Shown piece by piece: positions 10,208-14,747 of a stretch of DNA of 14,747 bases; position 1 is the first letter of the stretch, and each line of letters opens with the position of its first letter. The notes below the pieces were generated by a model. It saw only the letters and a program-made list of their open reading frames with translations, was not told the origin of the DNA and did not search any database. The stretch spans positions 1-14,747 of the forward strand of contig NW_021825685.1 in NCBI RefSeq assembly GCF_006345805.1. Direction: 5' to 3'. This DNA comes from Octopus sinensis. Taxonomy: Eukaryota. Both the position numbers and the translations under genes were made by a program.

Positions 10208-10444
10208 ACTCTTTTACTCTTTTTATTTGTTTCAGTCATTTGACTGCGGCCATGCTGGAGCACCGCCTTTAATCGAGCAACTCGACCTCGGCACTTATTC
10301 TCTGTAAGCCCAGTACTTATTCTATCGGTCTGTTTTGCTGAACCGCTAAGTTACGGGGACATAAACACACCAGCATCGGTTGTCAAGCAATGCTAGGGGG
10401 ACAAACACAGACACACAAACACACACGCATACATATACATATAT

Positions 10445-10519
<75 letters not shown>

Positions 10520-10683
10520 GACGGGCTTCTTTCAGTTTCCGTCAACCAAATCCACTCACAAGGTTTTGGTCGATCCGAGGCTATAGTAGAAGACACTTGC
10601 CCAAGGTGCCATGCAGCGGGACCGAACCCGGAACCATGTGGTTGGTAAACAAGCTACTTACCCCACAGCCACTCCTGCGCCTA
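10208..10683 (-). mobile_element. tRNA-derived SINE family A, best-preserved copy, with internal (TA)n
   Basis: Minus strand: taggcgcaggagtggctgtggggtaag (A-box-like), gggttcggtccc (B-box-like), accttgggcaagt (CORE-like motif), tail actgaaacaaataaaaagagtaaaagagt. Confidence 0.88.
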
Positions 10684-13376: not shown

Positions 13377-13552
13377 TAAACTCAAACACACATGTATATA
13401 TTTATGTATATATATATATATATATACAAAAGCATTTATGCATACGTGTATAAGCTTCTATGTATATGTATGTAGCGTTTTGCACAGACATAAATATATG
13501 CATTTTTATAAATACATGGTTATATGTATGTGCATATATATATGTATGTGTC

Positions 13553-13855
13553 GAGGCGCAATGGCCTAGTGGTTAGGGCAGCGGACTCGCGGTCGTAGGA
13601 TCGCGGTTTCGATTCCCAGACCGGGCGTTGTGTGTGTTTATTGAACGAAAACACCTAAAAGCTCAACGAGGTTCCGGAAGGGGGTGGTGATCCCTGCTGT
13701 ACTCTTTCACCATTCTTTCTCTCACTCTTTCTTCTGTTGGCCTGCTCGCTTAGCCAGCGGGGTGGCGTCATTCGAAGGCTAAAACAATGCGAACGCATTG
13801 TAACCAGCGATATGTAGCAACATCTGATGGTCTGGTCGGTCACGTGATCACGTGA
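13553..13855 (+). mobile_element. tRNA-derived SINE family B, full length, in a TA-rich tract
   Basis: A box TGGCCTAGTGG 13562-13572; B box GGTTTCGATTCC 13605-13616; tRNA-like head; tail tcacgtgatcacgtga. Confidence 0.9.
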
Positions 13856-13886
13856 TATATGTATGTATATGTAAATATATATATAT

Positions 13887-13920
<34 letters not shown>

Positions 13921-14153: not shown

Positions 14154-14156
<3 letters not shown>

Positions 14157-14196
<40 letters not shown>
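14157..14196. repeat. (TA)n microsatellite flanking the terminal element
   Basis: Direct reading. Confidence 0.95.
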
Positions 14197-14199
<3 letters not shown>

Positions 14200-14394
14200 G
14201 AGATTACGGCAGCGTTACTGGATATTAATAGTTATCGCCAAACTAATATGGCAGTCCATAAATATAAGACTAAAGCTGTCGCTGATTAGCTCCAAGAGGC
14301 CATCGCCTCTAGCTAGCTATATGACACACGAACCTGCGTCCATTACAACCTTCGAACACGGGAGGTCAGCCGCTTCACCTTGCTGGTCAGACAT

Positions 14395-14435
14395 CTGCAG
14401 ACATGTTTCAGGGTTGTTGCCCTTTATCAATGCAG
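14395..14435 (-). ncRNA. Hammerhead-like fold, UUGAUAA core variant
   Basis: Exact reverse complement of 14637-14677. Confidence 0.6.
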
Positions 14436-14636
14436 CGTAATCAGACCCAGCGACAGCTTTAGTCTTATATTTATGGACTGCCATATTAGTTTGGCGATAA
14501 TTATTAATATCCAGTAACGCTGCCGTAATCTCCTTTAGAGAGACTTAGTAATTTTAATATTTCTATTATTGAAAACAAGTGGGTGTATTCCACTGAAACA
14601 GACGGTCGCTAGCGACACCTGCTGGGTTTGACTATG

Positions 14637-14677
14637 CTGCATTGATAAAGGGCAACAACCCTGAAACATGTCTGCAG
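14637..14677 (+). ncRNA. Hammerhead-like fold, UUGAUAA core variant
   Basis: CUGCA-UUGAUAA-AGGG-caacaa-CCCU-GAAA-CAUG-UC-UGCAG; 5-bp stem I, 4-bp stem II, palindromic stem III ACAUGU, triplet GUC. Confidence 0.65.
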
Positions 14678-14747
14678 ATGTCTGACCAGCAAGGTGAAGC
14701 GGCTGACCTTCCCTGTTCGAAGGTTATAATGACGCAGGTTCGTGTGT

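Follow-up and report, generated by a model that had tools for sequence, protein, structure and literature searches.

The window analysed here, which is the entire 14,747-nt contig NW_021825685.1 of the 2.72-Gb Octopus sinensis genome, ends in two hammerhead ribozyme motifs, one in each of two head-to-head arms of a non-coding tandem repeat that has a 362-nt unit and is likely a non-LTR retrozyme. The motifs carry a U3-A8 core where sister families carry C3-G8, and would likely cleave as a dimer; taken as a whole, this reading is considered probable. While the U3-A8 core and retrozymes are each already known, an abundant family that combines them, likely of the retrozyme type, appears to be new, and no report of a U3-A8 retrozyme or of a cephalopod retrozyme was found in the literature searched (which took in few subscription papers, and from which the supplement of PMC7229834 fell outside).

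Two inverted hammerhead arms in the window

A motif scan of both strands located two type I hammerheads, each with a U3-A8 core, at 14642 (plus) and 14430 (minus), confirming in each copy the change at both positions 3 and 8 that had originally been predicted. The motif, which reads TTGATAA followed by a 4-bp stem II, GAAA, ACATGT and C, spans 14642-14672 on the plus strand and 14430-14400 on the minus strand. Its core fits the pattern NUGANNA / GAAA / UH, positions 3 and 8 forming a Watson-Crick pair, and these two positions are paired in all 19 rows of the covariation alignment described below; three helices surround the core, with the open end in stem I (type I), and helix III is complete only between two molecules. 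The features of the region are as follows.

14156-14196, no strand: (AT)n microsatellite, the likely insertion target, adjoining the 3' end of the minus arm and corresponding to the family-wide 3' flanks
14196-14451, minus: minus arm, covering unit positions ~196-362 and then 1-89 of the 362-nt repeat, 5'-truncated (alignment to the unit)
14395-14435, minus: type I hammerhead copy 1, with core U3-A9 at 14430-14424 and C17 at 14400 (motif scan)
14448-14451, no strand: head-to-head (5'-to-5') junction of the arms, with a 4-nt overlap
14448-14747, plus: plus arm, covering unit positions 1-323, with a deletion of ~23 nt near 14598, truncated by the contig end
14630-14641, plus: 5' arm of stem I, with the distal 3 bp at 14630-32, a UA(C/U)N internal loop at 14633-36 and the proximal 5 bp at 14637-41
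14642-14648, plus: catalytic core U3 U4 G5 A6 U7 A8 A9, with U3 at 14642 and A8 at 14647
14649-14662, plus: stem II, 4 bp, with A10.1-U11.1 as its basal pair and hexaloop CAACAA
14663-14672, plus: G12 A13 A14, palindromic helix III ACAUGU (14666-71) and C17 at 14672 (predicted cut after it)
14673-14682, plus: 3' arm of stem I, proximal at 14673-77, a 2-nt loop, distal at 14680-82

The UAC internal loop of stem I and a CAA-led loop 2 are kept across families (the stem II hexaloop of other subfamilies is CAAAUA or CAACUA), an arrangement that may resemble the loop 1-loop 2 tertiary contact of Schistosoma. Rfam returned no hammerhead match for the window motif; a C3-G8 relative was likewise unmatched, and the miss is therefore not due to U3-A8.

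The 41-nt motifs at 14637-14677 and 14435-14395 are identical, as originally predicted; the identical run between the arms is 74 nt long (14636-14709) and exceeds the motif by 32 nt on its 3' side. Arm against arm, six substitutions and one indel were counted in 128 nt, and 1 of 90 nt differs in a second shared block. At that divergence a 41-nt identical stretch is expected with P 0.10-0.22, and the full 74-nt run with P 0.016 (for one fixed place). The hammerhead copies lie on opposite strands, a point not made in the original prediction. Because they are inverted arms, probably of one insertion, their identity is no evidence of selection, and the use that had been made of it as support for covariation falls away. 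That both arms represent a single insertion is the most likely reading, because of the insertion pattern of the family as a whole (its 3' ends, AT-rich flanks and head-to-head partners); the minus arm itself adjoins (AT)20. Since they lie on opposite strands, the two window hammerheads cannot partner each other within one transcript, and the insertion is likely a passive daughter copy.

The window also harbors further repeats. At 1038-2697 lies an unrelated tandem element of ~563 nt, comprising two minus units and one plus unit arranged head-to-head, with outer ends in (AT)n. Each of its units contains a C3-G8 hammerhead-like motif (cores at 1275 minus, 1841 minus and 2362 plus). The long stem II of these motifs is interrupted, and helix III is a palindromic ACGTACGT in both minus copies; a first look identified 2,490 candidates in the genome, including tandem runs spaced 560 nt apart. 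A microsatellite-flanked, SINE-like repeat is found as two inverted copies (89%) at 13522-13895 and 7828-8196, with a tRNA-like head at ~13553-13625, and additional interspersed repeats whose copies are 70-80% alike occur at 7448-7825, 8650-9120, 10210-10683, 6178-6404 and 5235-5497.

The tandem unit and its insertions

The motif sits in a non-coding 362-nt unit that is found in tandem and is self-closing, the repeats following one another without an intervening body; ten tandem core-to-core intervals gave unit lengths of 355-365 nt. Dimers and trimers of the unit were found at four loci (L052, L062, L246 and L267), adjacent units of young U3-A8 tandems are 98.6% and 99.2% alike, and the sequence 5' of the core continues into the preceding unit for up to 2.1 units. 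Folded as circles, three units gave z values of -5.2 to -6.4 with 56-66% of bases paired at a GC content of 0.42, and their antisense strands were also stable as circles (z -4.0 to -6.6). The unit accordingly displays the characters of a non-LTR retrozyme: a non-coding tandem repeat of between 150 and 450 bp with low GC, a single type I hammerhead in each unit, and a highly self-paired predicted circle. Among the records that contain the unit, none is listed as RNA and 14 are only guessed to be RNA, all of these being contigs; contigs from four such runs cover the unit; the corresponding variant table (four runs, four organism codes) held no core variant, yet known position 7 and A10.1 variants were also missing from it.

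Insertions were surveyed at 70 loci comprising 104 segments, selected with an anchor that lies outside the ribozyme. Of the 104 segments, 85 stop at unit position ~63 or ~122, 76 have AT-rich 3' flanks and 81 possess a head-to-head partner; 20 are longer than one unit. Among 52 copies at risk, 5' ends fall at unit 248-255 in six, one of them exactly at the cut, and other peaks are similar; the cut site is read through in the remaining 46, and the templates of these copies were therefore ligated or uncut. Inserted copies decay about neutrally: changes in the core (11/749) were not significantly rarer than in the rest (427/19,944; P 0.13). One widely spaced pair, at L061, was examined as a candidate Penelope-like element (PLE) and rejected as a local duplication.

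These partial, 5'-truncated tandems with an inverted neighbour and a microsatellite target correspond to the described signature of PLEs (PMC8557442), and the copies might on that ground be regarded as truncated ends (pseudo-LTRs) of an autonomous Penelope-like retrotransposon and not as a separate retrozyme. The U3-A8 core was, moreover, first seen in PLE hammerheads, which also occur as opposite-strand pairs 100-700 bp apart (PMC4209133), and our comparison covered only two PLE families. We nevertheless consider this explanation unlikely. Upstream of the core lies the previous unit, up to the 2.1 units noted above, and among the ORFs listed no reverse transcriptase (RT) or GIY-YIG ORF is joined to the unit, nor does any RT plus GIY-YIG ORF lie between pseudo-LTRs; the RT piece at L068 lies on the opposite strand at a distance of ~1 kb. 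The unit is unlike all 42 PLE loci compared, except for this L068 insertion, and among those loci, which represent two Penelope-like families, no autonomous partner sharing sequence with the unit was found; a pattern search of their 3' regions likewise gave no convincing hammerhead.

Intact RT plus GIY-YIG ORFs of 775-777 amino acids that end in (AT)n-rich flanks do exist in this genome, and a Pfam search with one 777-aa ORF returned RT (below cut-off) and GIY-YIG. They include a young Penelope-like family (L220-L226 and L231) with an ORF of this type, tandem copies, (AT)n flanks and a second ORF of ~450 amino acids upstream, in which a pattern search did not find a canonical hammerhead; its cysteine-rich linker is, we presume, Neptune-like. 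Several hundred heterogeneous, decayed minimal hammerheads with an ACATGT palindrome are also scattered genome-wide, and are probably relics of older Penelope-like families.

Core covariation, abundance and predicted dimer cleavage

With positions 3 and 8 left free and the window's stem II fixed, 192 genome matches were obtained, and U3-A8 is present in 99 of the first 100 listed. Independent single changes at positions 3 and 8, which had been named as grounds for rejection, do literally occur under this pattern, in that position 3 is not U at four places and position 8 is not A at one (none being C3-G8). They stand at the level expected of decay after insertion and so do not refute the claim; the near-neutral decay of inserted copies accounts for these few single changes.

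Core classes were also counted with an exact pattern in which only the core and the tail were fixed, against a reversed control. These searches yielded 668 U3-A8 motifs genome-wide (control 30), 591 C3-G8 motifs with the same GAAACATGTC tail (control 12), 135 C3-A8 motifs (control 19) and 127 U3-G8 motifs (control 18). Among the first 100 listed in each class, on our reading of them, the window family accounts for 92 U-A, 0 C-G, 4 C-A and 4 U-G matches, and sister family B for 28 of the C-G matches. Loop 3 is altered in a further 299 copies, and the first 100 of these listed comprise 96 U-A, 3 C-G and 1 C-A. The genome is estimated to hold ~900 U3-A8 copies, a figure extrapolated from exact patterns and best read as a soft lower bound. 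The description of the variant as rare could not be upheld, since U3-A8 is the commonest core of its motif class here and natural U3-A8 hammerheads have been published (PMC3088659; PMC4209133); searches that demand CUGANGA would overlook hundreds of motifs in this genome. Invariance of the core in pattern-selected copies arises partly by construction, and was excluded as evidence.

Sister family B carries C3-G8 in a 355-nt unit that is colinear with the window unit at 57-61% identity (scores of 198-248 against shuffle maxima of 168-184, at six of six loci). Family C (L264, L265 and L266), which supplies the three C-G copies mentioned above among the first 100 with a changed loop 3, also carries C3-G8, with a stem I like that of family B and a stem II like that of the window family (A), and serves the U3-A8 family as its nearest natural control. 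In an alignment of 19 rows picked to span the subfamilies, 95% of cells are paired, and both partners have changed at 8 of the 15 pairs, against at most one in slid controls; these two-sided changes include 3-8, three stem I pairs and two stem II pairs. A pair-count shuffle, which ignores relatedness, found two of its measures unexceptional (54/500 and 421/500), and seven of eight family B rows have a mismatch at the foot of stem II. A private compensatory swap of A-U for U-A in stem I was observed at L044:2183-2243.

A tree of 67 of 128 rows, in which the commonest type was sampled at 12 and the bootstrap is not fully settled, contains a 100/100 branch that separates the 11 C3-G8 rows, without exception, from all U3-A8 lineages. 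The split was retained, with SH-aLRT 100, when positions 3 and 8 were masked (103 of 173 rows, with three long rows left out and the commonest type subsampled). Mismatched cores are scattered in the masked tree, the seven U-G rows needing seven changes and the six C-A rows needing five. Two C3-A8 copies (L029/L067 and L065) had their C supplied by an inversion junction. A U3-G8 wobble intermediate was sought as a subfamily and rejected, as such copies are scattered and the partner arms of L280 and L284 are U3-A8. Together these patterns point to one historical double switch at positions 3 and 8 that was inherited by all copies, with no mismatched state amplified; as one event, the switch is not by itself open to statistical test. 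The tree is unrooted, and C3-G8 is taken as the ancestral state on general consensus. The original interpretation of covariation as opposed to decay is hence sustained on family evidence (the 100/100 branch, the scattered mismatched tips and the 8 of 15 pairs) and not on the identity of two copies.

Three palindromic versions of helix III occur in the family: ACAUGU, ACUAGU and ACGCGU. The first 100 listed of the 299 copies that start loop 3 with a base other than A comprise 52 ACGCGU, 44 ACUAGU and four non-palindromic sequences (by eye); the palindromic ones represent two subfamily-level changes, not 96 events, and both retain the palindrome. This retention of the palindrome, which is genetic in kind, is the strongest evidence for a dimer and favours dimer cleavage after 14672. 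In predicted folds, helix III closes poorly in the monomer (-7.1 kcal/mol with A15.1-U16.1 closed against -12.8 open), and a double hammerhead at -30.8 kcal/mol compares with -27.4 for two free monomers. The unconstrained local fold differs from the hammerhead (-31.4 vs -24.8), and with helix III open the corresponding values are -13.7 and -12.8.

Alternatively, a monomer might cleave in another register, in which stem III has 4 bp and C17 lies at 14682; a duplicated ATGTC permits this fold in both window copies. Such cleavage appears very improbable: in constrained folds the register with C17 at 14672 (-24.8 kcal/mol) is better than that at 14682 (-19.8 kcal/mol) by 4-5 kcal/mol, in agreement with the site originally predicted; the required duplication is missing in other subfamilies and in the C3-G8 families; and the covariation matches the first register. 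It might also be argued that the U3-A8 hammerhead has lost all or nearly all activity, and that the unit spreads as a SINE-like passenger whose core is simply inherited, in that read-through of the site is seen in 46 of 52 copies, stem II begins with A-U or G-U in place of the usual G10.1-C11.1, and minimal PLE hammerheads cleave weakly in vitro in the account of PMC4209133. Subfamilies 81-89% alike within the U3-A8 lineage have, in contrast, changed loop 3 yet kept the palindrome, the free position 7 changed while stem I stayed paired, and no subfamily with a mismatched 3/8 pair was amplified; a dead ribozyme is accordingly held to be quite unlikely. An active, dimer-dependent U3-A8 hammerhead remains the likely reading of these comparisons, and the view of U3-A8 as a compensatory pair that retains activity agrees with in vitro activity stated in PMC3088659, citing its ref. 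32.

Proposed replication and known systems

According to the scheme of PMC7229834, a multimer transcript is cleaved by its hammerheads, ligated by tRNA ligase and copied by the RT of a retroelement, for which PLEs are candidates; mussel retrozymes of 350-390 nt make circles in that account, and a PLE origin has been argued in a 2026 preprint (10.64898/2026.07.22.740005). For the octopus family, tandem copies would be transcribed as a multimer, as in published retrozymes; two hammerheads would pair via the palindrome and cut after C17 (14672); and the monomer would be ligated into a circle by tRNA ligase (a step from PMC7229834). A Penelope-like RT with its GIY-YIG endonuclease might then nick (AT)n DNA, prime at either AU-rich unit site (~63 or ~122) and copy round the template, and two cDNAs primed from opposite target strands would join 5' to 5'. 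Priming at two AU-rich sites, and from two strands, is our own inference.

It is doubtful, if conceivable, that the switch to U3-A8 was itself selected, a weaker pair slowing cleavage such that circles or multimers survive to reverse transcription, and that the lineage thereby outgrew its C3-G8 sisters (~900 against ~170 copies, both extrapolated from exact-pattern counts). If that were true, the head-to-head placement in (AT)n and the two fixed priming sites would directly record the copying of circular RNA, from both target strands, by a Neptune-like Penelope enzyme. The insertion footprint renders the proposed mobilisation of retrozymes by PLEs testable, the homologous C3-G8 and U3-A8 units offer a natural experiment within one genome for the comparison of rates, and the three palindromic versions of helix III allow dimer cleavage and cross-talk between subfamilies to be tested.

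The family resembles the metazoan non-LTR retrozymes described by Cervera and de la Pena (2020; PMC7229834), of 350-390 nt in mussel and 330-350 nt in axolotl, in its non-coding tandem unit of 150-450 bp, GC below 50%, single type I hammerhead per unit, self-paired circle, a helix III that, like that of axolotl HHR_Amex1, is weak and palindromic, and the presence of PLEs in the same genome. Unlike those elements as described there, it has a U3-A8 core, is found mostly as short head-to-head (AT)n insertions with two fixed 3' ends, and is known here from DNA, whereas theirs are described with expression and circles. With the minimal hammerheads of Schistosoma PLEs, of which ~1,300 with U3-A8 are given in PMC4209133, it shares the U3-A8 pair, a palindromic helix III and opposite-strand pairs a few hundred bases apart; in contrast to the form described there, it has a 4-bp stem II with no extra base after A9, a stem I with an internal loop and distal helix, and no attached ORF. 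Related literature includes PMC6765202, PMC3884650 and PMC7151607, where the study of PLE dimers by Lunse et al. is cited. The same compensatory U3-A8 pair occurs among the natural hammerheads of Perreault et al. (2011; PMC3088659), who refer to 'several examples', whereas the octopus genome holds hundreds of copies together with homologous C3-G8 sisters.
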